The translations under genes were made by a program, and so were the position numbers. The notes under the pieces are model-generated. The model was given only the letters and a program-made list of their open reading frames with translations, did not search any database and was not told the origin of the DNA. DNA of 24,000 bases, from positions 6,215-30,214 of the forward strand of contig JAGXRH010000001.1 of assembly GCA_018335975.1 (NCBI GenBank), in the 5' to 3' direction. This stretch comes from Ignavibacteriales bacterium (GTDB taxonomy: Bacteria > Bacteroidota > Ignavibacteria > UBA10030 > F1-140-MAGs086). Positions 1 to 23,440 of this stretch are shown one piece after another; the first letter of the stretch is position 1, and each line of letters starts with the position of its first letter.

Positions 1-470
1 GCTTTACCGAAGTCTTTGCAGGGAGTTTAACGGGGGTAGTTTGGGGTTCCGTTGTTTGGGGCGATTATGATAATGACGGTGATTTGGATATTCTCCTGAC
101 GGGATACGTTAGTAGTGAATTTTACATTTCCAAAATTTATCAAAATACGGGAAGCGGATTTACTGAAGTTTTTGCTGGGAGTTTATTGGGAGCTGAAACT
201 GCAGACTGGGGCGATTATGATAATGACGGGGATTTGGATATTCTCTTGGCGGGATACAATGGTGTTTTGGGTTACCTTTCCAAAATTTATCAAAATACGG
301 GAAGCGGATTTACTGAAGTTTTTGCTGGGAGTTTACCGGGTGTTAATTCTGGTTTTGTAGCGTGGGGTGATTATGATAATGACGGCGATTTGGATATACT
401 TCTGACAGGATACGCCGATTCAGTTGTCGTTTCCAAAATTTATAAAAATACTGGGACGACATTTAACACC
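1..470 (+). repeat. Tandem coding repeat with a 150-nt period (about 3 copies), encoding the FG-GAP units
   Basis: nt 127-185 and 277-335 are identical over 59 nt. The block starting near 59 recurs near 209 with one mismatch. The outer copies (1-60 and 420-470) are diverged. Confidence 0.85.
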
Positions 471-2188: not shown

Positions 2189-2377
2189 ATGACAACTCAA
2201 ATTCTCGTACAACAACTTAACGAAGAAGTAAAAACACTCCAACGCGATGTAACAGCGTTAAAAACATTATTCTTGCGTATCCTTGCTATTCCGGAAGAAA
2301 CGCTCAATGAATATCAAAATGCGACTGCAATACAAAAGTCGTTGTTAAAAGCGCAAAAGACATTTCCGCGCTCGTAA
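2189..2377 (+). CDS. Small coiled-coil protein, putative antitoxin of the downstream RelE/ParE-like toxin
   Basis: 62-aa ORF whose stop (2375-2377) lies 1 nt before the toxin ATG (2379). Size and position are typical of a type II antitoxin, but I cannot name a motif. Confidence 0.5.
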   Translation: MTTQILVQQLNEEVKTLQRDVTALKTLFLRILAIPEETLNEYQNATAIQKSLLKAQKTFPRS

Positions 2378-2378
2378 T

Positions 2379-2633
2379 ATGGTCATCAATAAAACGGATG
2401 ATTTTATTGCAAGTGTCGAGAAATTACCGAGCGATGCTAAACGACTTCTCAAACGGCAAGAGGAAATTTTTGAACATAACTGGCTTGATACTCGTCTTCA
2501 CCTCAAGAAACTCAAAAATGAAGATGGCGTGTATTCTTTTCGGATAACGCGCCGATATCGGGTTCTCTTTTATTTTAGCAAAGGAGAAGCGGTATTTTTT
2601 GAAGTTGGACATCGAAAAGAAATTTACCGATGA
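2379..2633 (+). CDS. Type II toxin-antitoxin system toxin, RelE/ParE superfamily
   Basis: 84 aa. The C-terminal YSFRITRRYRVLFYFSKGEAVFFEVGHRKEIYR matches the RelE/ParE core pattern (YRxRxGxYRxxF...VGHRKxxY). Confidence 0.8.
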   Translation: MVINKTDDFIASVEKLPSDAKRLLKRQEEIFEHNWLDTRLHLKKLKNEDGVYSFRITRRYRVLFYFSKGEAVFFEVGHRKEIYR

Positions 2634-2707
2634 AAAATAATGCAATAACGATTGTTCTTCCATTGTATATTTGGCTAAAGCCAATAGTATTATTATCAAT
2701 TTTCCTC

Positions 2708-2860
2708 CACTATCTAAAGAGAATGTGTGATAATTCAATCAACCTTGATATGTCATTCCCACGAAAGTGGGAATCCATTTCATTTTCAAAGATTTTTAGA
2801 TTCCCGCTTTCGCGGGAAAGACAGTTTCCTGGAATTTTCACACAGTCTCTAAAGATAGTG
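2708..2860. repeat. MITE/REP-like structured element: 22-nt imperfect terminal inverted repeats enclosing two short GC hairpins
   Basis: cactatctaaagagaatgtgtg (2708-2729) pairs with the reverse complement of 2839-2860 at 19 of 22 positions. Inside are hairpins attcccac-gaaa-gtgggaat (2755-2774) and ttcccgc-tttc-gcgggaa (2801-2818). Confidence 0.6.
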
Positions 2861-2896
2861 GCAATGGGAAAAACTTATTTTGATAATGACCTAAAT

Positions 2897-2999
2897 GTGT
2901 CATTCCGAATTCCCGAATTCATTCGGGATGAGGAATCTTTTCTAAGTAATTGCTGAAATCACAAAAGATTTCTCGTCACTTCGTTCCTCGAAATGACAC
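2897..2999. repeat. Second nested inverted-repeat element of the GTCATTCC...GGAAT hairpin family
   Basis: gtgtcattccga (2897-2908) matches the reverse complement of tcgaaatgacac (2988-2999) at 11 of 12 positions. The inner hairpin is tcccgaat-tc-attcggga (2911-2928). An atttc/gaaat stem lies at 2968-2972 / 2990-2994. Confidence 0.6.
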
Positions 3000-3070
3000 G
3001 GTTGTTTTTTTAGAAGTTTTATAAAGATTATAACTACATATTTACACAATAGATTTTTACACAACCAAAA

Positions 3071-3099
3071 GTGCTACTCACTTTTAAAGTGAGTAGCAC
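3071..3099. other. 29-nt perfect palindrome (stem-loop) 53 nt upstream of the 3152 start codon
   Basis: gtgctactcactttt aaagtgagtagcac: the arm 3071-3084 is the exact reverse complement of 3086-3099. The T-run (3111-3116) starts 12 nt after the stem, so this is not a canonical intrinsic terminator. Confidence 0.6.
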
Positions 3100-3151
3100 T
3101 TGCAAACAATTTTTTAACAACTTATTTTATTAACCAACTCGGAGAATAACT

Positions 3152-6872: not shown

Positions 6873-7289
6873 ATGAAACGAACAATCAGCATACTTATAC
6901 TTATAACGGCATTTGCTTTCGTCTTGACAAATGCTCAGGATAAAATGGAAAAGAAAGACGAAATGATGAAAAAATCGGAAATGATGGAAAAGAAGATGAT
7001 GAAACGAAGCGATATGAAACATGATGAAATGGGAAAAATGAAATCATATATGTGCAGCGATGAAAAATGCGGGTTTATGGTGCAAAGTCCCGATGAAGAG
7101 GAAGTGATGTCCGCAACGAAAATGCACGGCAAAAAACATCACGATGTTGAAATGACAGACGAGATGGTAAAAGAAAAAATGGGCGGCGATATGATGAAAG
7201 GCGATGGAATGAAGAGAGGAAAAAGAATGCGCCGAGACGATATGATGAAAAAAGAGGAAATGATGAAGAAAGACGAAATGAAGAAATAA
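6873..7289 (+). CDS. Secreted methionine-rich protein with a central DUF1059-like small metal-binding (Cys/His) core
   Basis: Signal peptide MKRTISILILITAFAFVLTNAQ. By my count 26 of 116 mature residues are Met, set in MMKK/EMMEKK-type repeats on both sides of YMCSDEKCGFMVQSPDEEEVMSATKMHGKKHH (DUF1059-like C..CGF...EEE...H pattern). A strong terminator follows the gene. Confidence 0.8.
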   Translation: MKRTISILILITAFAFVLTNAQDKMEKKDEMMKKSEMMEKKMMKRSDMKHDEMGKMKSYMCSDEKCGFMVQSPDEEEVMSATKMHGKKHHDVEMTDEMVKEKMGGDMMKGDGMKRGKRMRRDDMMKKEEMMKKDEMKK

Positions 7290-11845: not shown

Positions 11846-12021
11846 AGTGGTCTCCTATAAAGCGAAACAAAGTTAGTTTTTGTTCTGGCAAAATATAGGG
11901 AGTTCCTTTCGCAATTCAAATTCAGAAAATGGTTTGTGATTCCGGGCGTAAATTGTTTCCCTCTTTCCAAAGTGGTATATTTTCCGCGTTAAAATTCAGA
12001 TACGACCAATCAATATTTTTT

Positions 12022-12240
12022 ATGGAACAACTTCTGACTAAAGCGTTTGAACGGGCATCGCAACTTCCAAAACCGCTGCAAGAAAAAATTGCAGAAGAAT
12101 TATTGGAAGACATCGAAGCCGAACTCAAATGGGATTCAACACTCGCAAAATCACAAGACAAACTTGAACAATTAGCGGAAAAAGCGTTGACAGAATTTAA
12201 GTCGGGAAAAACAAAACAATTGGGTTTTGACGAGTTGTGA
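12022..12240 (+). CDS. Putative type II antitoxin (helical, acidic)
   Basis: MEQLLTKAFERASQLPKPLQEKIAEELLEDIEAELKWD... Its stop overlaps the toxin GTG (GTGA at 12237-12240). I start it at ATG 12022 rather than the track's 11929. Confidence 0.65.
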   Translation: MEQLLTKAFERASQLPKPLQEKIAEELLEDIEAELKWDSTLAKSQDKLEQLAEKALTEFKSGKTKQLGFDEL

Positions 12241-12506
12241 TTTCTCATCTTTCTGTTGATTTTATTGATTGCTTTGAACGCTTGCCCGATAGAATCAAAG
12301 ACAAAGCGCGTCAATCATATAAACTTTGGAAAAATAATCCGAATCACCCAAGTCTTGATTTCAAAAAAGTGAATCAGAAAAAATCTATTTATTCCACACG
12401 CGTAGGAATTGGATGGAGAGCGTTGGGAGTACGGGAAGATGAAACAATCATTTGGTTTTGGATTGGCTCGCACACTGAATACGACAAAATTTTGAAACTA
12501 CTGTAA
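12237..12506 (+). CDS. Type II toxin-antitoxin system toxin, RelE/ParE superfamily
   Basis: 89 aa. The pattern is PSLDFKKV...IYSTRVGIGWRALGVREDETIIWFWIGSHTEYDKIL (YSxRxxxxxRALG...WxWIGSHxEYD). Confidence 0.75.
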   Translation: MISHLSVDFIDCFERLPDRIKDKARQSYKLWKNNPNHPSLDFKKVNQKKSIYSTRVGIGWRALGVREDETIIWFWIGSHTEYDKILKLL

Positions 12507-12513
12507 AATAATT

Positions 12514-13815
12514 TTGAAAAATATTTCTTTGAATAAACTTACATATAAACTCTCTCCTTCTTCAACAACGCAGCAACTTAATTCACATTACCAAAAAACG
12601 ATTTTGGAAAATGGCATTCGTGTTGTTACGGAACATATTCCCTGGGTTCATTCTGCTTCGATTGGGGTGTGGTTCGATGCAGGCTCGCGCGATGAAAACA
12701 AATCGAACAGCGGCATTGCGCATTTCCTTGAGCACATGGTTTTTAAGGGAACAAAGAATTTTTCCATCAAAGAAATTTCGCAAAGTTTGGAATCGGTTGG
12801 CGGATATTTAAATGCCTTCACGACGAAAGAGCAGACGTGTTTTCTCGCGAGAATGTTGGATGAACACATCGAGCAAGCGATTTCCGTGATTTCCGATTTG
12901 GTGCAACATCCGACGTTTCCCGAAAAGGAATTGAAGAAAGAAAAATTCGTCGTGCTGGAAGAATTGAAAGACGCGGAAGACGATGCGGAAGATTTCACTC
13001 AAGAAATGTTGGAGAAAGAATTATTTCCGAATCACCAACTCGGCGTTCCCGTGATTGGAACAATGGCGAGTGTAAAAAGTTTTTCGCGTGAGAAATTGAT
13101 TTCGTTTGCGAAAGAAAATTATATCCCGTCGAAAATGGTAATTGCCGCAGCGGGAAATTTGCAACACGAAACGATTGTTGCTTTGGTGAGAAAATATTTT
13201 CAATTGGAATTTGAATTGAATCATTTGCAGAAAAGAATTATTCCACCAAAACACACAAACGGAAAAAAAATAATTTTAGAAAAACCGATTCAGCAAGCGC
13301 ATTTATGTTTGGGAACAACATCGTTCAATGTTCATCATAAACTTCGCTATTCATTTTTGGTTTTGCATACGTTACTCGGCGAAGGGATGAGTTCACGCTT
13401 GTTTCAAAACATTCGCGAGAAATATGGGTTTGCGTACACGGTGTATTCGTTTCTCAATTTTATGCGCGATACAAGCACGTTCGGCGTGTATCTCGGAACG
13501 GATGAGAAGAATATCGAAAATGCAGAAGAACTTGTGTGGAAAGAATTGCACAAACTTTCTGCTAAACCGATTTCCAAACAAGAACTCGCGCGAACAAAAT
13601 CGCAACTCAAAGGAACGATGATGTTGAGTTTGGAAAGTATGAGCAACAGAATGATGCGCCTCGGAAGTGATGAACTCTATTTTGGCGAACAAACTTCTCT
13701 TTCCACAATCACCAAACGCATTGATGAAGTTACCGTAGAAAGTGTTTTGGAAACTGCGCAAAAAGTAATTGATGTGAAAAATTTTTCGACGGTGGTGTTG
13801 AAGCCGGGGAAGTAA
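12514..13815 (+). CDS. M16 family (pitrilysin/insulinase-like) zinc metallopeptidase, apparently cytoplasmic
   Basis: HFLEHMVFKGT is the inverted zinc motif HxxEH, and the downstream acidic motif VVLEELKD is present. I see no signal peptide. The start is uncertain (TTG at 12514, with no upstream ATG in frame). Confidence 0.85.
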   Translation: MKNISLNKLTYKLSPSSTTQQLNSHYQKTILENGIRVVTEHIPWVHSASIGVWFDAGSRDENKSNSGIAHFLEHMVFKGTKNFSIKEISQSLESVGGYLNAFTTKEQTCFLARMLDEHIEQAISVISDLVQHPTFPEKELKKEKFVVLEELKDAEDDAEDFTQEMLEKELFPNHQLGVPVIGTMASVKSFSREKLISFAKENYIPSKMVIAAAGNLQHETIVALVRKYFQLEFELNHLQKRIIPPKHTNGKKIILEKPIQQAHLCLGTTSFNVHHKLRYSFLVLHTLLGEGMSSRLFQNIREKYGFAYTVYSFLNFMRDTSTFGVYLGTDEKNIENAEELVWKELHKLSAKPISKQELARTKSQLKGTMMLSLESMSNRMMRLGSDELYFGEQTSLSTITKRIDEVTVESVLETAQKVIDVKNFSTVVLKPGK

Positions 13816-13817
13816 CG

Positions 13818-14087
13818 ATGGCAGTAATCTCAATGTTCTACGGTTTGATTGTTTCTATGTACTTTTATGACAATCGCCAGCATCACATTCCGCATATTCA
13901 CGCAAAGCATCAGAATGATGAAGCAGTTTTTTCTATCAATGATGGAACTATACTTGAAGGAAAACTACCATCGAATAAGCGAAAACTTGTCGAAGCATGG
14001 ATTGAAATTCACAAAGAAGAACTCATGGCGGATTGGGAGTTGGCAATTTCAGGAGAAAACGTTTTCAAAATTGAACCATTAAAATAA
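13818..14087 (+). CDS. DUF4160 domain protein (cassette partner 1)
   Basis: ISMFYGLIVSMYFYDNRQHHIPHIHAKHQNDEAVFSI..G..LEGKLP....LVEAWIEIHKEELMADW is the DUF4160 pattern (FxGIxIxMYxxDHxPPHFHAxY). It starts 2 nt after the M16 stop. Confidence 0.8.
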   Translation: MAVISMFYGLIVSMYFYDNRQHHIPHIHAKHQNDEAVFSINDGTILEGKLPSNKRKLVEAWIEIHKEELMADWELAISGENVFKIEPLK

Positions 14088-14092
14088 TCGTT

Positions 14093-14323
14093 ATGAATCC
14101 AAGAATAATAAACGTAAAACCAAACGAAGATTATACCTTGCTATTATCTTTTGAAAACGGAGAGCAAAAACTTTTCGATGTAAAACCATATTTGGATAAA
14201 GGAATTTTTCGGGAATTGAAAGATGAATCTCTTTTCAAAACTGTTCGTCCGTTTCTTGGAAGTATTCAATGGAAGAACGGACAAGATTTATGTCCCGATA
14301 CATTGTATTTAGATAGTAAATAA
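14093..14323 (+). CDS. DUF2442 domain protein (cassette partner 2)
   Basis: VKPNEDYTLLLSFENGEQKLFDVKPYL..GIFRELKDESLFKTV....GSIQWKNGQDLCPDTLY is the DUF2442 pattern. Confidence 0.8.
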   Translation: MNPRIINVKPNEDYTLLLSFENGEQKLFDVKPYLDKGIFRELKDESLFKTVRPFLGSIQWKNGQDLCPDTLYLDSK

Positions 14324-14332
14324 TTTCAATTT

Positions 14333-14647
14333 GTGACTGAAATTGTTCGTTCTAAAAATAATATTCCCATTCGATTAACGGAAGAACGATGGATTCATAT
14401 TACAGAAGAACATTCGGAAATGGCTGGATATTTTTTTGACGTTCTTGAAACGATAGAAAACCCGGTAATTATTTTTGAAGGTAAACACGATGAGAAAATT
14501 GCAGTCAAAGAAATTGAAAAAGGAAAATTTCTTTTAGTTTTCTACAAAGAAATTCAACGAGATGATGGTTTTATTATCACCGCATTTTTTACACGACAGA
14601 AAAAACAATTAGAGAAAAGAAAAATTTTATGGTCTCAACAGAAGTAA
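14333..14647 (+). CDS. Small uncharacterised protein, putative toxin partner of the downstream DUF2283 protein (occupies the position usually held by DUF4258-type proteins)
   Basis: 104 aa with a GTG start. It reads IRLTEERWIHITEEHSEM...GFIITAFFT. The family name is uncertain; the call rests on pairing and a 19-nt overlap with the DUF2283 gene. Confidence 0.55.
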   Translation: MTEIVRSKNNIPIRLTEERWIHITEEHSEMAGYFFDVLETIENPVIIFEGKHDEKIAVKEIEKGKFLLVFYKEIQRDDGFIITAFFTRQKKQLEKRKILWSQQK

Positions 14648-14859
14648 GAGAAATACTCAATGCTGTTCCGCAACTTGTTGGAATGCCGTTTCCGCGCGTG
14701 TGGTCAAGTTACGACAAAGAAGCGGATGTGTTATATTTGAATTTCAAAAAGCCAAGCCACGCCGACGATAGCGAACTTACCGATGAAGACGTCATTATCC
14801 GCTACGAACAAGGTGAAGTTGTTGGCATTACAATTTTGAATGCAAGTAAAAGAAAATAA
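14629..14859 (+). CDS. DUF2283 domain protein (putative antitoxin-like partner)
   Basis: SYDKEADVLYLNFKKP....E.....IIRYEQGEVVGITILNASK is the DUF2283 pattern (YDxEADALYIxL...GxIVGIEILxAS). Confidence 0.75.
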   Translation: MVSTEVREILNAVPQLVGMPFPRVWSSYDKEADVLYLNFKKPSHADDSELTDEDVIIRYEQGEVVGITILNASKRK

Positions 14860-14870
14860 TTCTTGATTTT

Positions 14871-16592
14871 ATGAATGTAACCATTACATTAGACGGTCAG
14901 CAACTCGAAACTGATTCGTCGAAAACTATTATTCAAGCGGCAAGAGATAACGGAATTGCGATTCCGAATTTTTGCTGGCATCCGGCATTATCCATTGCGG
15001 GAAATTGTCGCATTTGTCTTGTGGATTCCGGAATGCCGAAGAAAACGCGCGAAGGACAAATCGAACGCGATGCAAGCGGAAATGCAATAATAATGTACGC
15101 GCCGAAATTACAAATCGCTTGCCAAACAACAGTTGCGGATGGAATGGTAGTGCAATCGAAATCGCCGAAGGTCATTAACGCGCGCGAAGCCGTGATGGAA
15201 TTTCTGCTCATCAATCATCCGCTCGATTGTCCGATTTGCGACGAAGCCGGCGAATGTAAATTGCAAGAATACGCATACAAACACAGCGTCGGTTACAGCA
15301 GATTTGAATTTGAAAAAGTTCGCAAACCAAAACGCGTTGATATCGGAACAAACGTTATGCTCGATACAGAGCGTTGCATTATGTGTTCGCGCTGCGTTCG
15401 TTTCTGCGATGAAATTGTGAAAGAGACATCGCTCACGTTCTCCAATCGCGGCGACCATGTTGAACTTACAACATTTCCCGGAACTTCGCTCGACAATGAT
15501 TACTCGATGAACACGATTGATTTGTGTCCCGTTGGCGCGCTCACGAGTAAAGATTTTCGTTTCAAAGCGCGTGTGTGGGAAATGTCGTCAACGGATTCTG
15601 TTTGTGTTGGATGTTCGCGCGGATGCAACACAACAATCGGCGTTCGCAACAATGAAGTTTTGCGATTAACGCCGCGTTTCAACGACGATGTTAATAATTA
15701 TTGGATGTGCGATAACGGAAGATTGAACACGTTTAAAAGTGTGAACGCAGAAACCCGTATCAAAGCGCCGATGATTCGCAAAGAAGGAAAACTTGTTGAA
15801 GTCGGTTGGGATGAAGCGTTTGCAAAAGTTGCATCGGAACTTCGCCGGTTTCAGAAAAATGAAATTGCAGTTCTCGGTTCCGCGTTTGCAACAAACGAAG
15901 ATAATTTTCTTTTACAAAAATTTGCAAAACAAGTTCTCGGAACAAAGAATCTTGATTTCTTTCAACACATAAAAGATGGCGATGAAGACGAACTTCTCAT
16001 TCGCGCAGATAAAACGCCGAATAGTTTCGGAACAAAAGAAATGGGCGTTGGAAATGGAAATGCAGAAAATATTTTAAACGGAACAATTAAAGTTTTGTAT
16101 TTGCTTGAAGATAACATTGCGGAAAATTCTGATGTTGCAAACCTTCTTTCAAAATTAGATTTCCTCGTTGTTCATTCATCGAATCACAATGAAACGACGA
16201 AACTTGCCGATGTTGTGTTTTCTGCTTCAACATACGCGGAAAAAAACGGAACGTTCACAAACTTTCAAGGAAATGTGCAGCGCATTCGTCCCGCAGTTGC
16301 AACGCTGGAACAAGACCGCGCGCTCGATGGATTTGCGATGAGTCGTTTGGATAAATTCGGTTCGCAATTTGATAGATGGATGAAAGGTGAAAAACGCGAC
16401 GCTCGTTCTTCGTGGAAAATTATTTCGGGAGTTGCCAACGCAATGAACGCAAAATGGAAATACAATTCCGCCGAAGATGTGTTCAAAGAAATTGCGAATA
16501 CGGTTTCAAGTTTTCAAGGAATGAGTTATTTTAAGATGAGAAATAAGGGAATGAAGTTGAATAGTAATTCGGTGGTTGAAAAAGGGGTGTAA
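14871..16592 (+). CDS. nuoG: NADH-quinone oxidoreductase subunit G (short form)
   Basis: The N-terminal 2Fe-2S region reads ITLDGQQLE...IPNFCWHPALSIAGNCRICLV. HPLDCPICDEAGECKLQ is the N5 HxxxCxxCxxxxxC motif. CIMCSRCVRFC and CPVGALT are the 4Fe-4S motifs. A molybdopterin-like domain follows. Confidence 0.9.
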   Translation: MNVTITLDGQQLETDSSKTIIQAARDNGIAIPNFCWHPALSIAGNCRICLVDSGMPKKTREGQIERDASGNAIIMYAPKLQIACQTTVADGMVVQSKSPKVINAREAVMEFLLINHPLDCPICDEAGECKLQEYAYKHSVGYSRFEFEKVRKPKRVDIGTNVMLDTERCIMCSRCVRFCDEIVKETSLTFSNRGDHVELTTFPGTSLDNDYSMNTIDLCPVGALTSKDFRFKARVWEMSSTDSVCVGCSRGCNTTIGVRNNEVLRLTPRFNDDVNNYWMCDNGRLNTFKSVNAETRIKAPMIRKEGKLVEVGWDEAFAKVASELRRFQKNEIAVLGSAFATNEDNFLLQKFAKQVLGTKNLDFFQHIKDGDEDELLIRADKTPNSFGTKEMGVGNGNAENILNGTIKVLYLLEDNIAENSDVANLLSKLDFLVVHSSNHNETTKLADVVFSASTYAEKNGTFTNFQGNVQRIRPAVATLEQDRALDGFAMSRLDKFGSQFDRWMKGEKRDARSSWKIISGVANAMNAKWKYNSAEDVFKEIANTVSSFQGMSYFKMRNKGMKLNSNSVVEKGV

Positions 16593-16598
16593 GTTTTT

Positions 16599-16859
16599 AT
16601 GCCAGAAATAAGTAGATTTTTCGGAATCATAATTACGATGAAGGCAAACGACCACAATCCTCCGCATTTACACGCAAAGTATCAAGATGAGCAAGCAATT
16701 TTTGATATTCAAAGTGGCGAAATTCTGCGGGGAAAATTTTCTGAGCGAGCAGCTCGATTAGTTCAAGATTGGATTCAATTACATTCTGTTGAGTTAATGG
16801 TTGATTGGAATTTGGCATCAAAAAATCAACTTATTTTTCCAATAACACCTTTAAAATAA
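16599..16859 (+). CDS. DUF4160 domain protein (second copy)
   Basis: ISRFFGIIITMKANDHNPPHLHAKYQDEQAIFDI..GEILRGKF.....LVQDWIQLHSVELMVDW. By eye it is roughly 40-45% identical to the copy at 13818. Confidence 0.8.
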   Translation: MPEISRFFGIIITMKANDHNPPHLHAKYQDEQAIFDIQSGEILRGKFSERAARLVQDWIQLHSVELMVDWNLASKNQLIFPITPLK

Positions 16860-16861
16860 AT

Positions 16862-17176
16862 ATGATTATGGACGAATGGATTACAATTACTTCCGTAGAA
16901 AATAAAAGCAATTACATTTTACGGTTAACATTCAGCGACGATTGCGTAAAAGAAATTGATATGTCGGATTTGAAATATCTTTCCGGTGATTTTTCTGTTC
17001 TCAACAACGAAGAAGATTTTCGGAAAATAAAAATTGTTGACGATGGCAGAGCGTTGCAATGGGAATGTGGTTACGATAATTGCGCGGATGAACTTCGTTA
17101 CTTTCGTGATTACATTTTTGCAGAAGGTTTAGAAAATTCTTCGTTTGAATTAGAAAAAGAAAATGTTATCGCTTAA
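16862..17176 (+). CDS. DUF2442 domain protein (second copy)
   Basis: ITSVENKSNYILRLTFSDDCVKEIDMS....GDFSVLNNEEDFRKIKIVDDGRALQWECGYDNCADELRY. I place the start at ATG 16862, 2 nt after the upstream stop, not at 16805. Confidence 0.75.
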   Translation: MIMDEWITITSVENKSNYILRLTFSDDCVKEIDMSDLKYLSGDFSVLNNEEDFRKIKIVDDGRALQWECGYDNCADELRYFRDYIFAEGLENSSFELEKENVIA

Positions 17177-17184
17177 CTTTTCAG

Positions 17185-17241
17185 CCACGAATTTCACGAA
17201 TTTTCACTAATGTGGTTTGTGCTAATTCGTGAAATTAGTGG
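17185..17241. repeat. 18-bp-stem hairpin (1 mismatch) built from CACGAATTT repeats, just upstream of nuoH
   Basis: ccacgaatttcacgaatt (17185-17202) pairs with the reverse complement of aattcgtgaaattagtgg (17224-17241) at 17 of 18 positions, with a 21-nt loop. It is followed by an A-rich rather than a T-rich tract. Confidence 0.7.
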
Positions 17242-17259
17242 CAACAAAAAATAAAAATT

Positions 17260-18294
17260 ATGTTTGAACTTTTCATCATCAGCACCATCAAAATCGTCGT
17301 AATGTTAATCGTATTATTAACCACTGCGGCGTATATGGTTTTAGCGGAACGACGAATCAGCGCGGCTGTGCAAGATAGAATCGGTCCCAATCGCGTTGGA
17401 TGGCAAGGGTTTTTGCAGCCGCTCGCCGATTTAGTAAAACTTGTTACGAAAGAAGACATTGTTCCGAAAGCGGCGAACAGATTTATTCACGACCTCGCGC
17501 CGATTATTTCCGTGTTCATTGCGCTTACAACATTTGCTGTTGTTCCGTTCGGAAATACGATTGAACTTTTCGGAAGAACAATCAAATTGCAAATCGCCGA
17601 CGTGAACATAGGCATTCTCTACATTCTTGCGCTCGCTTCGGTTGGCGTGTACGGAATTACGCTCGCCGGTTGGTCATCGAACAATAAATATTCGCTGCTC
17701 GGCGGAATGCGTTCATCTGCGCAAATGATTTCCTACGAACTTTCGATGGGACTTTCGATCATCGGCGTGGTGATGATTTCTTCTTCGCTGCAACTCGATA
17801 AAATTGTCGAAGCGCAAACCGGTTACGTTCTCGGTTTTCTTCCGAAATGGAATATCGTTTTACAACCGATTGGTTTCATTACGTTTCTTGTTTCGTCTTT
17901 TGCGGAAACAAATCGCACGCCATTTGATTTGCCCGAAGCGGAACCGGAACTCGTCGGCGGTTATCACACGGAATATTCGGGATTGAAATTCGGTTTATTT
18001 TTTCTCGCGGAGTATTGTAATATGGTTGTCGCAAGCGCAGTGATTACAACGCTGTATCTCGGCGGTTGGCAATTTCCGTACGTTGAATCATTTGGATTTT
18101 CTCCGTTCGTTGTAAGTTTATTGCAAGTCGGAGCGTTTGCGATAAAAGTTGGAGCGCTTTTATTTTTCTTCATTCTCGTTCGCTGGACTGTTCCGCGTTT
18201 TCGTTACGACCAACTGATGAATCTCGGATGGAAAGTTATGCTCCCGCTTGCGTTGGCAAATATTGTGGTTACGGGAATATTTTTGTTGATGTGA
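17260..18294 (+). CDS. nuoH: NADH-quinone oxidoreductase subunit H
   Basis: 344 aa and polytopic. Motifs: AERRISAAVQDRIGPNRVG, GWSSNNKYSLLGGMRSSAQMISYE, ETNRTPFDLPEAEPELVGGYHTEYSG and RWTVPRFRYDQLM. Confidence 0.95.
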   Translation: MFELFIISTIKIVVMLIVLLTTAAYMVLAERRISAAVQDRIGPNRVGWQGFLQPLADLVKLVTKEDIVPKAANRFIHDLAPIISVFIALTTFAVVPFGNTIELFGRTIKLQIADVNIGILYILALASVGVYGITLAGWSSNNKYSLLGGMRSSAQMISYELSMGLSIIGVVMISSSLQLDKIVEAQTGYVLGFLPKWNIVLQPIGFITFLVSSFAETNRTPFDLPEAEPELVGGYHTEYSGLKFGLFFLAEYCNMVVASAVITTLYLGGWQFPYVESFGFSPFVVSLLQVGAFAIKVGALLFFFILVRWTVPRFRYDQLMNLGWKVMLPLALANIVVTGIFLLM

Positions 18295-18303
18295 GGGAAG
18301 AAA

Positions 18304-18331
18304 TTTTAGATTTTAGAATTCAGATTTTAGA
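18304..18331. repeat. Short TTTTAGA repeat tract in the nuoH-downstream gap
   Basis: ttttaga occurs at 18304-18310, 18311-18317 and 18325-18331. A similar attttagatttgag lies in the moaD-moaE junction (6325-6338). Confidence 0.5.
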
Positions 18332-18391
18332 TTGAACGTTTCGCAAAGAGAATAAACTCGAACCTTGTAACTCTAAACCTCAAACTTTTTT

Positions 18392-18619
18392 ATGAACACA
18401 CAACCAATTTCTTTTTCAGATATTTTGCAATTAAGCGTTTCCGAACGCATTCAACTTGTCGAAGATATTTGGGATAGTCTTCGAGAAGTTCCGGATGAAT
18501 TTGGATTAAGTGATGCTCAGCGAAAAGAACTTGCGCGAAGAGCGGAAGAATTTTATAAAAATCCCAACGAAGGAATTCCTTGGAAAACGTTGAAAGCCAA
18601 TCTTCTCAATAGCAAGTGA
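18392..18619 (+). CDS. Addiction-module antitoxin (putative addiction module component family)
   Basis: LQLSVSERIQLVEDIWDSL....LSDAQRKELARR is the characteristic LSxxERxxLxxxxWDSL motif. Its stop overlaps the toxin start (GTGA at 18616-18619). Confidence 0.8.
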   Translation: MNTQPISFSDILQLSVSERIQLVEDIWDSLREVPDEFGLSDAQRKELARRAEEFYKNPNEGIPWKTLKANLLNSK

Positions 18620-18912
18620 AGTTAGAGAGTTTAATACGCTCTGATGCACAACGAGAAATTACAGAAACATTTCAGTGGTATGAAAATCAGAGTAACGGTC
18701 TCGGTACAGAATTCCTCCGTGCTGTTGATGCTGCAATTGCTTCGATTGAACGATTTCCTAAAGCATTTCCAAAAGTTGAAGGTGAAACAAGAAAAATTTT
18801 GTTACGAAGATTTCCTTACGCTATTTTTTATATTGTTCACCTGGATATAATTGCAATAACCGGATGTTATCATCAAAAACGCCATCCGGAAATTTGGCGA
18901 AACAAATCGTAG
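18616..18912 (+). CDS. Type II toxin-antitoxin system toxin, RelE/ParE family
   Basis: AQREITETFQWYENQSNGLGTEFLRAVDAAIASIERFP.....V.G..RKILLRRFPYAIFY......I.I.GCYHQKRHPEIW is the ParE-like pattern. Confidence 0.8.
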   Translation: MKLESLIRSDAQREITETFQWYENQSNGLGTEFLRAVDAAIASIERFPKAFPKVEGETRKILLRRFPYAIFYIVHLDIIAITGCYHQKRHPEIWRNKS

Positions 18913-18936
18913 CGACAAATAACGAATAACTCTTTT

Positions 18937-19452
18937 ATGAAAGACAACGGACAAACAACAAAACAAGTTCGCAACGAAAACCTATCGTTTTTGCAGCGAA
19001 CATATATTCCCGAAATTGCAAAGGGATTAGTTCTCACGTTTGGAAAAATGTTTGGGAAAAAATTCACTCGGCAATATCCCGAAGAACGATGGACTCCTCC
19101 GGCATCATTTCGCGGAAGACCGGTTCTCGTGCAAGAAGAAAACGGAACAGAACGCTGCGTTGCGTGTGGATTGTGCGCGCGCGTTTGTCCCGCATTAGCA
19201 ATTGAAATGCAAGCGAGCGAAACACCGCTCTACGATAAAGAACGTTATCCCGTAAAATTTGAAATCAATATGCTTCGCTGCATCTTCTGTGGATTTTGCG
19301 AAGAAGCGTGTCCCGAAGAAGCAATCGTTATGAGTGATGAGTACGAACTTGTGTTCGATAAAATGGAAGATGCAGTTTTCGGAAAAGATAAACTCCTCAT
19401 CCCGAAAAAGAAATTACAAAAGCGTTTGGATTTTTTGCGCGAATATAAATGA
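18937..19452 (+). CDS. nuoI: NADH-quinone oxidoreductase subunit I
   Basis: Two ferredoxin-type motifs: [12 protein letters not shown] and [12 protein letters not shown]. An N-terminal amphipathic region is typical of NuoI. Confidence 0.95.
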
Positions 19453-19778
19453 AACTCCCGATTGATGTAACAATTTCAAAAGAGAAACTTACCAATTATC
19501 TTTTGGAATTGAGAATCGAAGATGACAAATCAAAATTTCTTTTACAAGCGGGATATGAAATAGAACTTTGGAAACAATTAGAAGAAGATTTGCGAACGCA
19601 AATATTGACACAAGAAGCAACATTGATTGAACAAACTACTTTCGGAGATGTGTATGAAATACTTGGAACTCTGCAAGGACTGAATGGACGAAAACTCAAC
19701 GTTGTAACTATTTGGATGACAGAATACAAAACTCAGAAAACAAAATTTATCACACTCTTTCCCGATAAGGAAAAATGA
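19449..19778 (+). CDS. DUF6883-like protein (cassette partner 1)
   Basis: KLTNYLLE.....[11 protein letters not shown]...W..LE..L..........[27 protein letters not shown]. Its ATG overlaps the nuoI stop (ATGA at 19449-19452). Confidence 0.65.
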
Positions 19779-20023
19779 AAATGAATTATAACCTTTTTAC
19801 CCGTGTTGCACTTCGAGAAGATTTATTGCGATACAATCTTCAACGAGGAGACATTGCGACCATCGTAGATAAGCACGTAGGAAATAATAATGAAATTGGC
19901 TATTCTCTTGAAGTCTTTAATGCACTTGGCGAAACGATTTCTGTTGTCGTAGTTTCCGAAAATCAAATTGAACCGCTGATGAAAAATGAAATTCTTCATG
20001 TTCGCCAATTAGAAGTCGCATAA
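19775..20023 (+). CDS. DUF4926-like protein (cassette partner 2)
   Basis: LFTRVALREDLLRYNLQRGDIATIVDKH.....GYSLEVFNALGETISVVVVSENQIEPL. It has an ATGA overlap with the upstream gene (19775-19778). Confidence 0.65.
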   Translation: MKMNYNLFTRVALREDLLRYNLQRGDIATIVDKHVGNNNEIGYSLEVFNALGETISVVVVSENQIEPLMKNEILHVRQLEVA

Positions 20024-20040
20024 ATCTTCTTTAAAGTTAT

Positions 20041-21390
20041 ATGAAAATTTTTCTTTACACATTCTTACTTTTTTTCGGAACAATGACCAACTCCATTTCC
20101 CAACTCAACATTCCTTTTGAAAAATATGAACTTGCAAACGGCTTGCAAGTTATTCTGCACGAAGACCACACGGTACCGATTGTGTCGGTAAATATTTATT
20201 ATCACGTTGGCGGCGCGAATGAAAAACTTGGACGAACCGGTTTCGCGCACCTCTTCGAGCATCTGATGTTTGAAGGAAGCGAGCACGTGAAAGACGGAAT
20301 GTATGACCAAATCGTTGATGGTTCCGGCGGACAAAACAATGGTTCGACTGGATTCGATGCAACAAATTATTGGTCAATCGTTCCGGCAAATTATCTTGAA
20401 TCTGTTCTCTGGCTCGAGTCCGATAGAATGGGATTTCTGCTTCCGGGAATTACGCAAGATAGATTAGATTTACAGCGCGACGTTGTAAAAAACGAACGCA
20501 GACAATCGTACGAAAATCAGCCGTATGGAATGTCGTGGATGAAAATTTTTGAATCGCTCTATCCAGCGGGCGTTCCGTACAATTGGCTTCCGATTGGTTC
20601 GCAAGAAGATTTAACTGCCGCTTCGCTCGATGACGTAAAAGATTTTTTCAGAATTTATTATGCGCCGAATAACGCAAGTCTCGTTATCGGCGGCGATATT
20701 GATGTTCTGAAAACAAAACAACTCGTAGAAAAATATTTCGGTGGAATTGCAAAAGGAAAAGAAATTCAGCGACCAAATCCAACGAATGTTTCGATTAAAG
20801 AAACAAAGCGAATGGTGCTCGAAGATAATGTTCAACTTCCGCGATTATATATGTTTTGGCTTTCCACTTCAATGTTTGGAAAAGAAGACGCGTCGCTTTC
20901 GCTGCTTTCCGATATTCTGACGGGAGGAAAAAATTCTCGTCTGTACAAATCGCTTGTGTATGAAAAACAAATTGCGCAAGATGTTTCTGCGTTTCAAGAT
21001 GGCAATGCGCTTTCGGGAGATTTCGGAATTATTGTAACGGCAAAAGAAGGACACACGCTTTCCGAAATGGAACAAGCAGTGAACGAAGAACTGGAAAAAA
21101 TAAAATCGAACGGAATTGAAGAACGCGAGTTGCAGCGTTCAAAAAATAGTATTCGTGCGAATTTTATTTACGGATTGCAAAACGTTGGCGGGTTCGGAAG
21201 CAAGACAGACCAGATGAATCGCTACAATACATTCTTCGGAAATCCCGGACGCTTCAACGAAGATTTGCAACGCTACGAAACTGCGTCTGCAAACGATATT
21301 CAAAACGCAGCAAAGAATTTTCTCGATATGAATAAACGTGTTGTGTTGAGCATTGTTCCAAAGGGAAAATTGGAGTTGCAAGCGAAGTAA
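20041..21390 (+). CDS. Secreted M16 family zinc metallopeptidase, catalytically competent subunit
   Basis: Signal peptide MKIFLYTFLLFFGTMTNSIS. HLFEHLMFEGS (HxxEH) is present, with a downstream VVKNERRQ motif. Confidence 0.9.
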   Translation: MKIFLYTFLLFFGTMTNSISQLNIPFEKYELANGLQVILHEDHTVPIVSVNIYYHVGGANEKLGRTGFAHLFEHLMFEGSEHVKDGMYDQIVDGSGGQNNGSTGFDATNYWSIVPANYLESVLWLESDRMGFLLPGITQDRLDLQRDVVKNERRQSYENQPYGMSWMKIFESLYPAGVPYNWLPIGSQEDLTAASLDDVKDFFRIYYAPNNASLVIGGDIDVLKTKQLVEKYFGGIAKGKEIQRPNPTNVSIKETKRMVLEDNVQLPRLYMFWLSTSMFGKEDASLSLLSDILTGGKNSRLYKSLVYEKQIAQDVSAFQDGNALSGDFGIIVTAKEGHTLSEMEQAVNEELEKIKSNGIEERELQRSKNSIRANFIYGLQNVGGFGSKTDQMNRYNTFFGNPGRFNEDLQRYETASANDIQNAAKNFLDMNKRVVLSIVPKGKLELQAK

Positions 21391-21420
21391 TTTTCTTTTT
21401 TTCATTTAAAGGAATTTATT

Positions 21421-21768
21421 TTGAAATTACCTAATGGCGAACAAGCAATAATTCCCGAAGCAAAACTCGAGGAATATTGTTTAAATCCGCTTCACCCGGA
21501 CGGAAAACATAAAGCGAAAGTTTTTGAAAAAGCGTTGGGATTTTCAATTTCGGAAAGCGATGAATTGAGAAAATTAGTTTTAGAATCTGCCGAGATGGGA
21601 AACGTAACAAAACAATCAAAGAATAATTTTGGAACTCTTTACCGCGTTGAACATACTGTGCAAGGATTGTTACAAGAAGAAATTCTTGTAACATTATGGA
21701 TTATTCCAAATATAGAAACACAACCATACTTAACTACTTCATACATCAAAACTCGAAAGGGTAAATAA
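21421..21768 (+). CDS. DUF6883-like protein (second copy)
   Basis: TTG start. AKLEEYCLNPLHPDGKHKAKVFEKALGFS.....L......A........NNFGTLYRVEHTVQG......LVTLW. It is a divergent paralogue of the gene at 19449. Confidence 0.65.
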   Translation: MKLPNGEQAIIPEAKLEEYCLNPLHPDGKHKAKVFEKALGFSISESDELRKLVLESAEMGNVTKQSKNNFGTLYRVEHTVQGLLQEEILVTLWIIPNIETQPYLTTSYIKTRKGK

Positions 21769-21989
21769 TGATTCACCTCCATGATTTTGTCGCACTTTTA
21801 GACAATATTCCTAACACAACCATTATTAGAGGAACGACGGGAACGGTTGTTTCTCAACTTTCTGATAATTTTTTTCTTGTTGAATTTTCAGATGAGAACG
21901 GAGAAGTGTTTGAACAACTTCCTATTCAACAAGATAGTTTGCTGGTGTTACATCGCATCAGCGAAAACGCAGAATTTGCAAATCCGTAA
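21768..21989 (+). CDS. DUF4926-like protein (second copy)
   Basis: LHDFVALLDNIPNTTIIRGTTGTVVSQLSDNFFLVEFSDENGEVFEQLPIQQDSLLVL. It overlaps the upstream stop by 1 nt. Confidence 0.65.
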   Translation: MIHLHDFVALLDNIPNTTIIRGTTGTVVSQLSDNFFLVEFSDENGEVFEQLPIQQDSLLVLHRISENAEFANP

Positions 21990-22015
21990 TTGTTTTCCAT
22001 TGACTCAACGATACG

Positions 22016-23440
22016 ATGAAAATAATTTTTATACATACACTCATAATTTTACTAATGATAACCAACTCATTCACACAGTTCGATAGAACTATTCCACCGA
22101 AACCGGGAACATTGCCATCACTTACTCTTCCAAACATTCAACGCGCTGAACTTGCAAACGGATTAAAGATAATGATTGTCGAACATCATAAACTTCCCGT
22201 TGTAACAGTGCAACTTATTTTACAAAGCGGCTCATCGCTTGACCCAGCTGGAAAATCCGGTGTTGCGCGATTTACAACTTCGATGATTGATGAAGGAACG
22301 CCAACAAAAAATTCACTTGAGATTGCTGATGCGTTTGATTTTCTCGGTGCGCAGTTTTCGGCTTCTGCCAATTTTGATGGAACGTATCTTTCGCTGACAA
22401 CATTGAAAGAACATCTCGATGTAGCAGTTGAAAATTATGCCGAAGTTCTGCTCCATCCGACATTTCCACAAAAAGAATTTGACCGCTTACAGAAAGAACT
22501 TCTCACTTCGCTTTCACAACAAAAAGACCGCGCTCCCGTTGTTGCCTCGAATGTCTTCAACAAAATACTGTATAACAATCATCCGTACGGAAATCAAGTA
22601 AGCGGAGATTCCATCAGTGTTGCAAATCTTTCTTTGAACGATGTTCAACAATTTTATAATTCGTACTATGCGTCAAATAACGGAACTTTAATTTTCGTTG
22701 GCGATATTACAAAAGAGGAAGCGATAAAGATTGCCGAAAAATATCTCGGCAAGTGGCAGAAGAAAAATATTCCTTCTGCAAAACTTCCCGAATCGAAAAA
22801 CCCTGATGGCGTTACTCTGTATCTTATTGATAAAAAAGATGCACCGCAAACAGAAATTCGCATTGGTCAACTTGGCGCGGCGAGAAATACGGAAGATTAT
22901 TATACGCTCACCGTGTTGCAACACATTCTTGGAAGTTCGAGCGGAAGATTATTTTTGAATTTACGCGAAGCGAAAGGTTACACGTATGGCGCGTATGCAA
23001 ACTTTGGTTACAGAAAATCTACAGGACCATTTGTCGCAAGCGCGGGAGTAAAAACCGAAGTTACCGATAGTTCCATCATAGAATTTCTCTATGAATTAAA
23101 TCGTATGCGCGATGAAGTTGTTTCCGATTCGGAATTTCAAATGTATAAGACTGCGGTGATTCAACGTCTTCCGCGAGGATTTGAAACACCGTCACAAATT
23201 TCTGAGCAACTCGCAAACCTCGTTTTGTATAATTTACCGGATAATTATTTCAATTCGGTCGTTGATAATTTAAGCAAGGTAACGCAAAATGATATTCAAT
23301 CTGCCGCACAAAAATATTTTCAAACGGAAAAACTTTGCATCGTTGTTGTCGGCGATAAAGAAAAAATCCTTTCACCGTTAGAAAAACTTGGTATTGGAAA
23401 AATCGTTTTGTGCGATACAGACGGAAATGTTATAAAATAG
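22016..23440 (+). CDS. Secreted M16 family peptidase-like protein, non-catalytic subunit (HxxEH lost)
   Basis: It has a hydrophobic N-terminus and the overall M16 layout. The position equivalent to GFAHLFEHLMFEG reads GVARFTTSMIDEG (H->R, E->T, H->S). Confidence 0.85.
   Translation: MKIIFIHTLIILLMITNSFTQFDRTIPPKPGTLPSLTLPNIQRAELANGLKIMIVEHHKLPVVTVQLILQSGSSLDPAGKSGVARFTTSMIDEGTPTKNSLEIADAFDFLGAQFSASANFDGTYLSLTTLKEHLDVAVENYAEVLLHPTFPQKEFDRLQKELLTSLSQQKDRAPVVASNVFNKILYNNHPYGNQVSGDSISVANLSLNDVQQFYNSYYASNNGTLIFVGDITKEEAIKIAEKYLGKWQKKNIPSAKLPESKNPDGVTLYLIDKKDAPQTEIRIGQLGAARNTEDYYTLTVLQHILGSSSGRLFLNLREAKGYTYGAYANFGYRKSTGPFVASAGVKTEVTDSSIIEFLYELNRMRDEVVSDSEFQMYKTAVIQRLPRGFETPSQISEQLANLVLYNLPDNYFNSVVDNLSKVTQNDIQSAAQKYFQTEKLCIVVVGDKEKILSPLEKLGIGKIVLCDTDGNVIK

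Follow-up and report, generated by a model that had tools for sequence, protein, structure and literature searches.

How chromosomal toxin-antitoxin (TA) modules integrate without mobile-element genes, how long they are kept and whether they serve their host are open issues, and all three are raised by a 24,000-nucleotide stretch of contig JAGXRH010000001.1 from an uncultured Ignavibacteriales bacterium (hereafter the window, i.e., the whole stretch analysed). Positions 12022-23440 of the window carry a string of 20 genes, all on the + strand, comprising three M16 peptidase genes, the complex I genes nuoG, nuoH and nuoI, and seven two-gene cassettes with TA signatures. Why should such cassettes be threaded through conserved housekeeping genes? 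We consider it probable that TA islets colonised a permissive operon, where they ride as passengers transcribed by read-through from host promoters.

The first-pass annotation of this stretch had described 20 co-oriented genes separated mostly by 0-30 nt or overlapping, with a cassette upstream of the first housekeeping gene and in every junction that follows, and with about one third of the span given over to cassettes. Our open reading frame (ORF) calls agree on all of these points: junction gaps measure -19 to +30 nt, with two exceptions of 83 nt (17177-17259) and 97 nt (18295-18391), and cassette genes account for 3783 of 11419 nt (33%). The junction sequences likewise bear out two arrangements it had singled out, i.e., the 2-nt gap between the stop of the first peptidase gene (M16a) and the ATG of a DUF4160 gene, and the overlap of the nuoI stop and a DUF6883 ATG as ATGA; a second DUF4160 gene starts 6 nt after the nuoG stop. 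In all seven cassettes the partners are small, adjacent and co-oriented, with an intra-pair spacing of -19 to +5 nt. All six slots of the string are filled, versus 2 of ~16 junctions in the contig's other ~23 kb (hypergeometric p ~4e-4, a post hoc figure from a single contig). The genes of the string are listed below, with cassettes and peptidases annotated by Pfam and the nuo genes by NCBIfam:

12022..12240, + strand: cassette 0, first gene, putative antitoxin of 72 aa; weak Unstab_antitox match (E 0.033); stop overlaps the next start (GTGA).
12237..12506, + strand: cassette 0, second gene, ParE-like toxin of 89 aa; PF24732 ParE_like, E 1.8e-12.
12514..13815, + strand: M16 peptidase a; Peptidase_M16 and M16_C domains, HFLEH motif; orthologues 52-86% identical in relatives.
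13818..14087, + strand: cassette 1a, first gene, DUF4160, DhiT-type toxin; PF13711, E 2.5e-24.
14093..14323, + strand: cassette 1a, second gene, DUF2442, DhiA-type antitoxin; PF10387, E 7.4e-13.
14333..14647, + strand: cassette 1b, first gene, PBECR2, putative BECR-fold RNase-type toxin; PF18810, 31.5 bits versus a cut-off of 27.1.
14629..14859, + strand: cassette 1b, second gene, DUF2283, putative antitoxin; PF10049, E 7.7e-16; 19-nt overlap with PBECR2.
14871..16592, + strand: nuoG, short form of 573 aa; TIGR01973, E 2.8e-139.
16599..16859, + strand: cassette 2, first gene, DUF4160, second DhiT-type toxin; PF13711, E 2.9e-22.
16868..17176, + strand: cassette 2, second gene, DUF2442; PF10387, E 4.3e-8; start as in the gene call.
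17260..18294, + strand: nuoH; NuoH equivalog models, E 1e-107 to 1e-122.
18392..18619, + strand: cassette 3, first gene, Unstab_antitox antitoxin; PF09720, E 3.8e-17; orthologue in lineage L169/L170 91% identical.
18616..18912, + strand: cassette 3, second gene, predicted ParE-fold toxin (by homologue domain, profile and AlphaFold model).
18937..19452, + strand: nuoI; TIGR01971, E 1.5e-40.
19449..19778, + strand: cassette 4, first gene, DUF6883, putative BECR-like toxin; PF21814, E 9.5e-21.
19775..20023, + strand: cassette 4, second gene, DUF4926; PF16277, E 2e-14.
20041..21390, + strand: M16 peptidase b; HLFEH motif; orthologues 76% (L169) and 90% (L194) identical.
21421..21768, + strand: cassette 5, first gene, DUF6883; PF21814, E 1.3e-25; 29% identical to the first DUF6883.
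21768..21989, + strand: cassette 5, second gene, DUF4926; PF16277, E 3e-16.
22016..23440, + strand: M16 peptidase c; M16 family without the HxxEH motif, inactive partner.

Read from the translations, HxxEH is thus kept in M16a and M16b and missing from M16c. The start codon of the cassette 0 antitoxin is uncertain, an ATG at 11929 also being open. No Rfam families or tRNA genes were found in the window.

All seven cassettes bear TA signatures, two being ParE-type, two DUF4160/DUF2442 (DhiTA-type), one PBECR2/DUF2283 and two DUF6883/DUF4926. A toxin family is recognised by Pfam in six of them (ParE_like, DUF4160 twice, PBECR2, DUF6883 twice) and by fold in the seventh (18616-18912). The families proposed in the first-pass annotation were essentially right, save that the protein it had called unknown (14333-14647) is PBECR2. 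Its ParE call at 18616-18912 finds no match in Pfam and stands on other grounds: a homologue (P0159, 58% identical) has PF05016, the profile of the protein matches the M. tuberculosis ParE2 structure 8c26 over its full length (E 0.018, search against PDB), and its AlphaFold model (mean predicted local distance difference test, pLDDT, 83) has ParE toxins as its top PDB matches, with template modelling (TM) scores up to 0.75 (6xrw, 8c26, 6x0a, 5cw7, 3kxe). On these three lines, the protein is predicted to have a ParE fold. Moreover, the AlphaFold 2 model of the second DUF6883 protein (pLDDT 92) presents three helices followed by four strands, where a BECR fold was taken to be N-terminal helices followed by a four-stranded antiparallel sheet. 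The best structural match of the DUF6883 model is the contact-dependent inhibition toxin-immunity complex 6cp9 (TM 0.64-0.67), the matched chains being unspecified as to toxin or immunity protein, and it is on this match that the putative toxin nature of DUF6883 rests.

The cassettes appear to have come from outside. They are AT-rich (35.4% GC versus 41.5% in the housekeeping genes), and cassettes of the same family within the window are just 29-45% identical (45% between the two DUF4160 proteins), which argues for independent acquisition of the paralogous cassettes. The DUF6883/DUF4926 pairing is found again in unrelated genomes, behind a restriction-modification system or an acetyltransferase gene, and the closest outside relatives of the second DUF6883, all from other phyla, reach no more than 67% identity. 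In other phyla the same cassette families lie directly 3' of unrelated genes in the same orientation, and they are present on plasmids and phage-like contigs as well. Taken together, the AT-richness, the paralogue divergence, the distant outside relatives and the occurrences on plasmids and phage-like contigs point to acquisition from a mobile pool.

What did the string look like before the cassettes arrived? NuoH scans of public genome and metagenome contigs gave a nearest match of 72%, and closer relatives were reached via a protein-cluster search and exact-protein look-ups. Across ~60 other Ignavibacteriota loci the string is kept, its junctions short and empty of cassettes. In ~40 Ignavibacteriota loci (NuoH identity 60-77%) the order is M16a, an aminotransferase or alanine dehydrogenase gene (370-480 aa), nuoG, nuoH, nuoI, tightly packed and without cassettes, often with M16b and M16c a few kb 3' of nuoI, and the nuoG-nuoH and nuoH-nuoI junctions are shorter than 250 nt in all Ignavibacteriota-like loci. 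Given this conserved order and these short junctions, nuoG-H-I is a stand-alone sub-cluster in the phylum, set within an operon-like string that is ancestrally free of cassettes. Just nuoG, nuoH and nuoI are present in the window, rather than a contiguous nuoA-N or an 11-gene subset, and the same holds for the ~40 related loci, where they are flanked by M16 and other genes; the remaining nuo genes, for which no search was made, must be elsewhere. Gaps of 576-1033 nt between nuoG and nuoH in Acidobacteriota and similar loci were considered as further insertions and rejected, as a longer NuoG accounts for them.

Cassettes are restricted to a small clade in which NuoH is at least 84% identical, represented by the window and five related lineages, i.e., L194 and L167 (both 92% identical to the window in NuoH), L163 (90%), L193 (87%) and L169/L170 (84%). 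The aminotransferase or alanine dehydrogenase gene is absent from every lineage of this clade that covers the M16a-nuoG junction (L163, L167 and L169/L170; L193 and L194 stop short of it). Comparison of the same junctions revealed presence/absence polymorphism across L163, L167, L169, L193 and L194, with at least nine cassette types across six slots and six lineages (occupancy verified by tblastn):

Slot promoter-M16a: antitoxin/ParE-like in the window; empty in L167, L163 and L169; not covered in L194 and L193.
Slot M16a-nuoG: DhiTA-1 and PBECR2/DUF2283 in the window; both, reversed, in L167; empty in L163; DhiTA-1 and a BrnT pair in L169; not covered in L194 and L193.
Slot nuoG-nuoH: DhiTA-2 in the window and L167; 4 nt in L194; a hairpin element only in L163 and L193; 42 nt in L169.
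Slot nuoH-nuoI: Unstab/ParE in the window and L169; 64 nt in L194; 72 nt in L193; rearranged in L167 and L163.
Slot nuoI-M16b: DUF6883/DUF4926 in the window; antitoxin/ParE_toxin (PF05016) in L194; the L194 pair with its antitoxin frame broken in L193; a weakly HicB-like ORF in L169; rearranged in L167 and L163.
Slot M16b-M16c: DUF6883/DUF4926 in the window; 38 nt in L169; rearranged in L167 and L163; not covered in L194 and L193.

What the clade conserves is the slot rather than the type of cassette in it. Three apparent differences were rejected: gene-caller tables lacked Unstab/ParE in L170 and the second DUF4160 in L167, both of which tblastn finds, and a 77-aa ORF in L170 taken for a cassette is the N-terminus of M16c.

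Several of these junctions retain traces of how their contents changed. In L163, a 15-codon ORF (MKQEVKKILNASKRK, then a stop) lies directly 5' of nuoG and consists of the first and last DUF2283 codons fused at a repeated ILNA microhomology; this is a deletion scar, and L163 therefore lost its cassettes. In L167, the junction DUF2283-TAA-CG-ATG-DUF4160 matches the window's M16a-TAA-CG-ATG-DUF4160. The order swap in L167 presumably arose by tandem duplication of the two-cassette block followed by loss of the outer copies, which would give exactly this TAA-CG-ATG junction. In L193 (2355-2530), the antitoxin of the pair 3' of nuoI appears broken by stops or frameshifts relative to L194; the gene may be eroding, or the contig, which is short and of low coverage, may contain errors. 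In both L167 and L163 the string is interrupted past nuoH, with other genes in place of nuoI, M16b and M16c.

If the cassettes change hands within the clade, are they nevertheless old? For orthologous cassette genes the ratio of nonsynonymous to synonymous divergence (dN/dS) is 0.06-0.21, versus 0.08-0.19 for the neighbouring housekeeping genes, and purifying selection acts on toxin genes and antitoxin genes alike over species- to genus-level divergence. By gene, dN/dS is 0.06 for the first DUF4160 (orthologues 85% identical in L167 and 71% in L169), ~0.10 for its DUF2442 partner (87-88%) and 0.13 for PBECR2 (86% in L167); the second DUF4160 is 92% identical to its L167 orthologue. Between the window and L167, the synonymous divergence (dS) of five of six cassette genes (0.52-0.71) is like that of the flanks (0.52-0.64), so most of the cassettes shared with L167 are about as old as the lineage split and have been inherited with the operon; the first DUF4160 stands apart at 1.4. 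The Unstab/ParE cassette behaves differently. Between the window and L169 its dS is ~0.55 versus 1.0-1.3 in the flanks, it is missing from the intermediate lineages L193 and L194, and nucleotide identity rises from 0.70-0.79 to 0.83-0.89 at 17860-18760 (the last third of nuoH plus Unstab/ParE) and drops at the start of nuoI. The low dS, the identity tract and the absence from L193 and L194 suggest that the pair was exchanged later, through homologous recombination in the genes on either side; several losses would be an alternative account of this distribution.

How, then, are the cassettes expressed? Two features of the + strand bear on this:

11953..11992, + strand: promoter-like motif (TTG, 20 nt, TATATTTT) of the Bacteroidetes-type -33/-7 pattern.
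17184..17242, + strand: strong hairpin resembling repetitive extragenic palindromic (REP) elements, with 27-nt arms (-28.2 kcal/mol, z -6.4) and no U tract, just 5' of nuoH in the 83-nt spacer.

The motif of ~40 nt is common to the window, L167, L163 and L169. In the three relatives it ends ~19 nt before the M16a start (the ancestral start being probably the TTG at 12526), and in the window it lies 5' of cassette 0; cassette 0 therefore sits between the presumed promoter and M16a. Judged by this conservation and position, the motif would be the promoter of the string. The cassettes begin and end ~0-10 nt from start and stop codons, which would leave no space for promoters of their own. Moreover, between the window and L167 no 5' sequence beyond ~5 nt moved along with the DhiTA-1 and PBECR2 cassettes, and a search for sequence common to homologous cassettes 5' of the genes in different contexts found none. 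From these tight borders, and because nothing upstream travels with the cassettes, we infer read-through transcription from the host string, and the start-stop overlaps suggest that the cassettes are partly coupled to host genes in translation. No terminator-like site was found at intergenic + strand positions of the string (overall, 13 sites versus a shuffle expectation of 13.1). The first-pass statement that the string lacks an intrinsic terminator therefore holds for the intergenic + strand, but it had overlooked the hairpin at 17184-17242, which is possibly an mRNA processing or stabilising site. A sigma-70 promoter scan gave 19 sites versus 29 expected and is uninformative for this phylum.

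The spacers of the clade hold other elements. The window hairpin has CACGAATTTCACGAAT arms, and at the same position before nuoH a different hairpin family (AATAGAACAC...GTGTTCTATT) occurs in L163, L167 (9843-9931) and L193 (615-727). This element is multi-copy, since it recurs elsewhere in L163 (copies at 9865-9953 and 14133-14221); in that lineage a U run comes after it, which gives it a terminator-like appearance. A small-ORF island in L167 (11090-16329) includes a 155-aa Y1_Tnp (IS200/RAYT-like) gene, which could be a mobiliser of REP-like hairpins. Similar CACGAATTTCACGAATT motifs lie just 5' of nuoH in unrelated phyla (L058, L069), and a short motif, TTTAGATTTTAGA, is repeated together with its complement in clade spacers (window 18295-18391, L167 7475-7515, L163 11018-11100), where it adjoins cassettes and empty sites alike.

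The history that we propose from this comparison is as follows. In one Ignavibacteriales clade the aminotransferase or alanine dehydrogenase gene would have been lost, and the junctions would have become landing sites where type II TA modules settled out of a pool that circulates horizontally, each cassette of about two ORFs being inserted in sense orientation at a gene boundary. The cassettes would then most likely be transcribed by read-through, in places translationally coupled to host genes, and would persist as addictive or otherwise selected elements. Slots would turn over by microhomology deletion, by reshuffling through tandem duplication and deletion, and by replacement with other TA families, and homologous recombination in the core genes on either side would probably carry cassettes from lineage to lineage. 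The cassettes would thus be passengers of the operon rather than parts of complex I or of the M16 protease. The first-pass annotation had named hitch-hiking of addictive modules on an operon as one of two possibilities, and the cassette-free ancestral order, the lineage-restricted insertions at gene boundaries and the different families per slot lend it comparative support. Any benefit to the host, e.g., phage defence, is hypothetical.

Several points weigh against this history. It leaves the primary insertion step without a mechanism, and the enrichment statistic is post hoc and lacks the genome-wide TA density of this organism as a baseline. DUF6883/DUF4926 and PBECR2/DUF2283 are TA candidates by association and fold only, while read-through is argued from geometry only. 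The hairpin at 17184-17242 could split the transcript, and two Bacteroidetes-type promoter-like matches, inside the nuoH 3' end (18253-18285) and the ParE gene (18799-18829), could drive separate transcripts. Finally, pure selfish addiction with erosion (PMC13617665) does not predict the long purifying selection on the toxins, and this selection hints at a host-level function.

The first of the competing explanations takes up these transcriptional points. The cassettes might be autonomous TA islets with their own autoregulated promoters inside the 3' end of the upstream gene, their co-orientation reflecting selection against antisense or head-on transcription, in which case the string would not be one transcript. 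Autoregulation is the norm for type II TA modules, and in Dickeya a promoter of its own serves DhiTA; both promoter-like matches would fit such islets, and the hairpin would fit as a possible transcript boundary. However, five of the six slots have spacers of only -4 to +30 nt 5' of the cassettes (the sixth, between nuoH and the antitoxin, has 97 nt), and the L169 antitoxin begins just 4 nt after the nuoH stop. Both promoter-like matches, moreover, fall within genes, where coding function accounts for the conservation of the sequence, and the lack of upstream sequence travelling with DhiTA-1 and PBECR2 also argues against promoters of their own. We regard autonomous transcription as possible but unlikely.

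Purifying selection on both partners across species, together with the pile-up of insertions in one transcription unit, would be explained by a more elaborate arrangement, which we think doubtful. Cassettes without promoters of their own might act as a 'dead-man's switch': once the M16/nuoGHI transcript stops, labile antitoxins would decay and the ParE-, DhiT- and BECR-type toxins would fire. If so, growth would be tied to expression of the string, and its gene order would be locked against deletion.

The same selection, the retention of cassettes at the same slots across species and the overlap of the DUF6883 start with the nuoI stop could also speak for domestication, with RNase- or gyrase-type toxins adjusting how mRNA is processed, in what stoichiometry subunits are made or how the quality of complex I and the M16 protease is controlled. 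The second possibility named in the first-pass annotation, that the cassettes regulate complex I expression or control its quality, is of this kind, and the comparison does not support it: lineages with 87-92% identical NuoH are without cassettes at nuoG/nuoH or nuoH/nuoI, all more distant Ignavibacteriota are without them, unrelated toxin families occupy one slot depending on the lineage, and the same families sit beside unrelated genes elsewhere. Domestication accordingly appears improbable.

Cassettes that are co-oriented, apparently promoter-less, made of two genes and placed 3' of one promoter-like motif, and whose order changes, also recall an integron-like site-specific system that inserts and shuffles cassettes 3' of a fixed promoter. 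Yet gene calls over the 34.5 kb surrounding the locus include no integrase or other recombinase, and a search for direct or inverted repeats and attC-like sites flanking the cassettes found none; the borders show no repeat family and no paired inverted repeats, and spacers of 2-30 nt are too short to hold them. Furthermore, essential-type genes stand between the cassettes, which do not form a stack, and duplication plus deletion would explain the order swap, so that we find such a system very hard to credit. All the data are metagenomic. Nothing was found in favour of a contig chimeric from assembly or binning, which has a negligible chance, misassembly being excluded as far as the data allow by three assemblies from three accession sets (ENA ERZ27300258, Logan SRR6213120 and JGI 3300001798), which are 100% identical over their overlaps and across the junctions, and by orthologous interleaved arrangements in other species (64-93% protein identity).

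Outside the string, the contig holds two more pairs, and all nine of its TA pairs are co-oriented with the neighbouring genes. The first-pass annotation had noted the eighth, which is indeed present though only weakly ParE-like:

2189..2633, + strand: a 62-aa gene and an 84-aa weakly ParE/RelE-like gene (ParE_like E 2.6e-5, ParE_toxin E 1.5e-4, neither of them above the cut-offs).

The ninth, a DUF2281/PIN pair resembling VapBC (L175 2493-3126, on the same contig ~3-4 kb 5' of window position 1), precedes the gene for a 1712-aa type IX secretion system protein, the 3' part of which occupies window positions 84-2129. With the ninth pair before it and the weak ParE pair after it, this giant gene is bracketed by co-oriented TA pairs. 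A 108-aa ORF at 2630-2956 is probably no gene, as region 2630-3150 is a nest of palindromes, i.e., 39-nt arms (2707-2745 and 2823-2861) enclosing 25-nt arms, with GGGAATC/GATTCCC cores, and a perfect 16-bp palindrome at 3069-3101. Further on, 6873-7289 encodes a protein of 138 aa that looks secreted, has an extreme content of Met, Lys, Glu and Asp (MMKK/EMMKK repeats) and gives a weak DUF1059 match; it lies between XdhC, MoaD and MoaE (molybdopterin synthesis) and an MsrP/MsrQ-like pair (Oxidored_molyb plus cytochrome b).

As a compact natural experiment with six slots, at least nine cassette types and six lineages, the locus displays gain and loss of cassettes, the scar of a deletion, a swap in cassette order, probable erosion and perhaps lateral replacement. 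If read-through is true, TA modules can be promoter-less passengers in housekeeping operons, which would bear on operon prediction and annotation in uncultured phyla, on models of selfish-element persistence and on the interpretation of small ORFs in respiratory clusters.

Our literature search, the coverage of which is incomplete, returned no precedent for an operon threaded by TA cassettes, or for TA modules in nuo operons or in Ignavibacteria. TA cassettes are known residents of chromosomal integrons, e.g., the Vibrio superintegrons. Like those arrays, the string combines apparently promoter-less, co-oriented cassettes, TA pairs among them, in variable order behind a presumed upstream promoter; unlike them, it has no integrase and no attC, and conserved housekeeping genes stand between its cassettes. 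In Paracoccus denitrificans and Rhodobacter capsulatus, unidentified reading frames are scattered through the nqo/nuo clusters, which resemble the present locus as complex I clusters that tolerate small unrelated ORFs. To our knowledge these frames are not TA pairs, whereas here the inserts belong to recognisable TA families and the cluster is just nuoG-H-I. Host promoters or regulons also govern the TA pairs in relA-mazEF of E. coli and, reportedly, the competence-regulated toxTA of Haemophilus influenzae (bioRxiv 10.1101/633164). Both are single modules at the end of an operon or apart from one, in contrast to the serial insertions between operon genes seen here.

Individual cassettes can be compared with known modules as well. 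Those at 12237-12506 (ParE-like domain) and 18616-18912 (predicted ParE fold) resemble ParDE in their antitoxin-first order and stop/start overlap; they differ in having no ParD (ribbon-helix-helix) partner, the partner being Unstab_antitox PF09720 (18392-18619) or a 72-aa protein weakly matching it. DUF4160/DUF2442 corresponds to DhiTA, an experimentally functional TA module of Dickeya dadantii (PMC8198452), and both window pairs have the DUF4160 toxin gene first, then DUF2442, with matches above the Pfam cut-offs. DhiTA, however, stands alone with its own autoregulated promoter, while the window pairs start 2 and 6 nt after the M16a and nuoG stops, the likeness being one of domain pair and gene order.

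The closest parallel is the TA islet. The first-pass annotation had assumed that TA loci usually lie in islands or on mobile DNA, yet TA pairs alone between core genes, clustered in small spots, lost by deletion or pseudogenisation and proposed to spread via recombination at core genes that flank them, have already been described (Belot et al. 2026, PMC13617665; Hayes and Van Melderen 2011, cited there). Like these, the present cassettes lie between conserved genes without mobile-element genes, are co-localised and are patchy among relatives; they are accessory TA genes with presence/absence variation, and the genes on either side of them are syntenic neighbours in relatives. The linkage reported for Photorhabdus islets is short-lived and their selection relaxed (PMC13617665); in contrast to such fast erosion in enterobacteria, several cassettes here have been under purifying selection as long as their respiratory neighbours, and several are kept at the same slot with dN/dS ~0.1 across species. 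Thus, the locus would take a known element, the TA islet between core genes, to an extreme, apparently without promoters of its cassettes' own, and is unusual in that every consecutive junction of one operon-like string is filled, that cassettes abut or overlap host genes, that one sits in the leader, and that intact toxins have long been under purifying selection.

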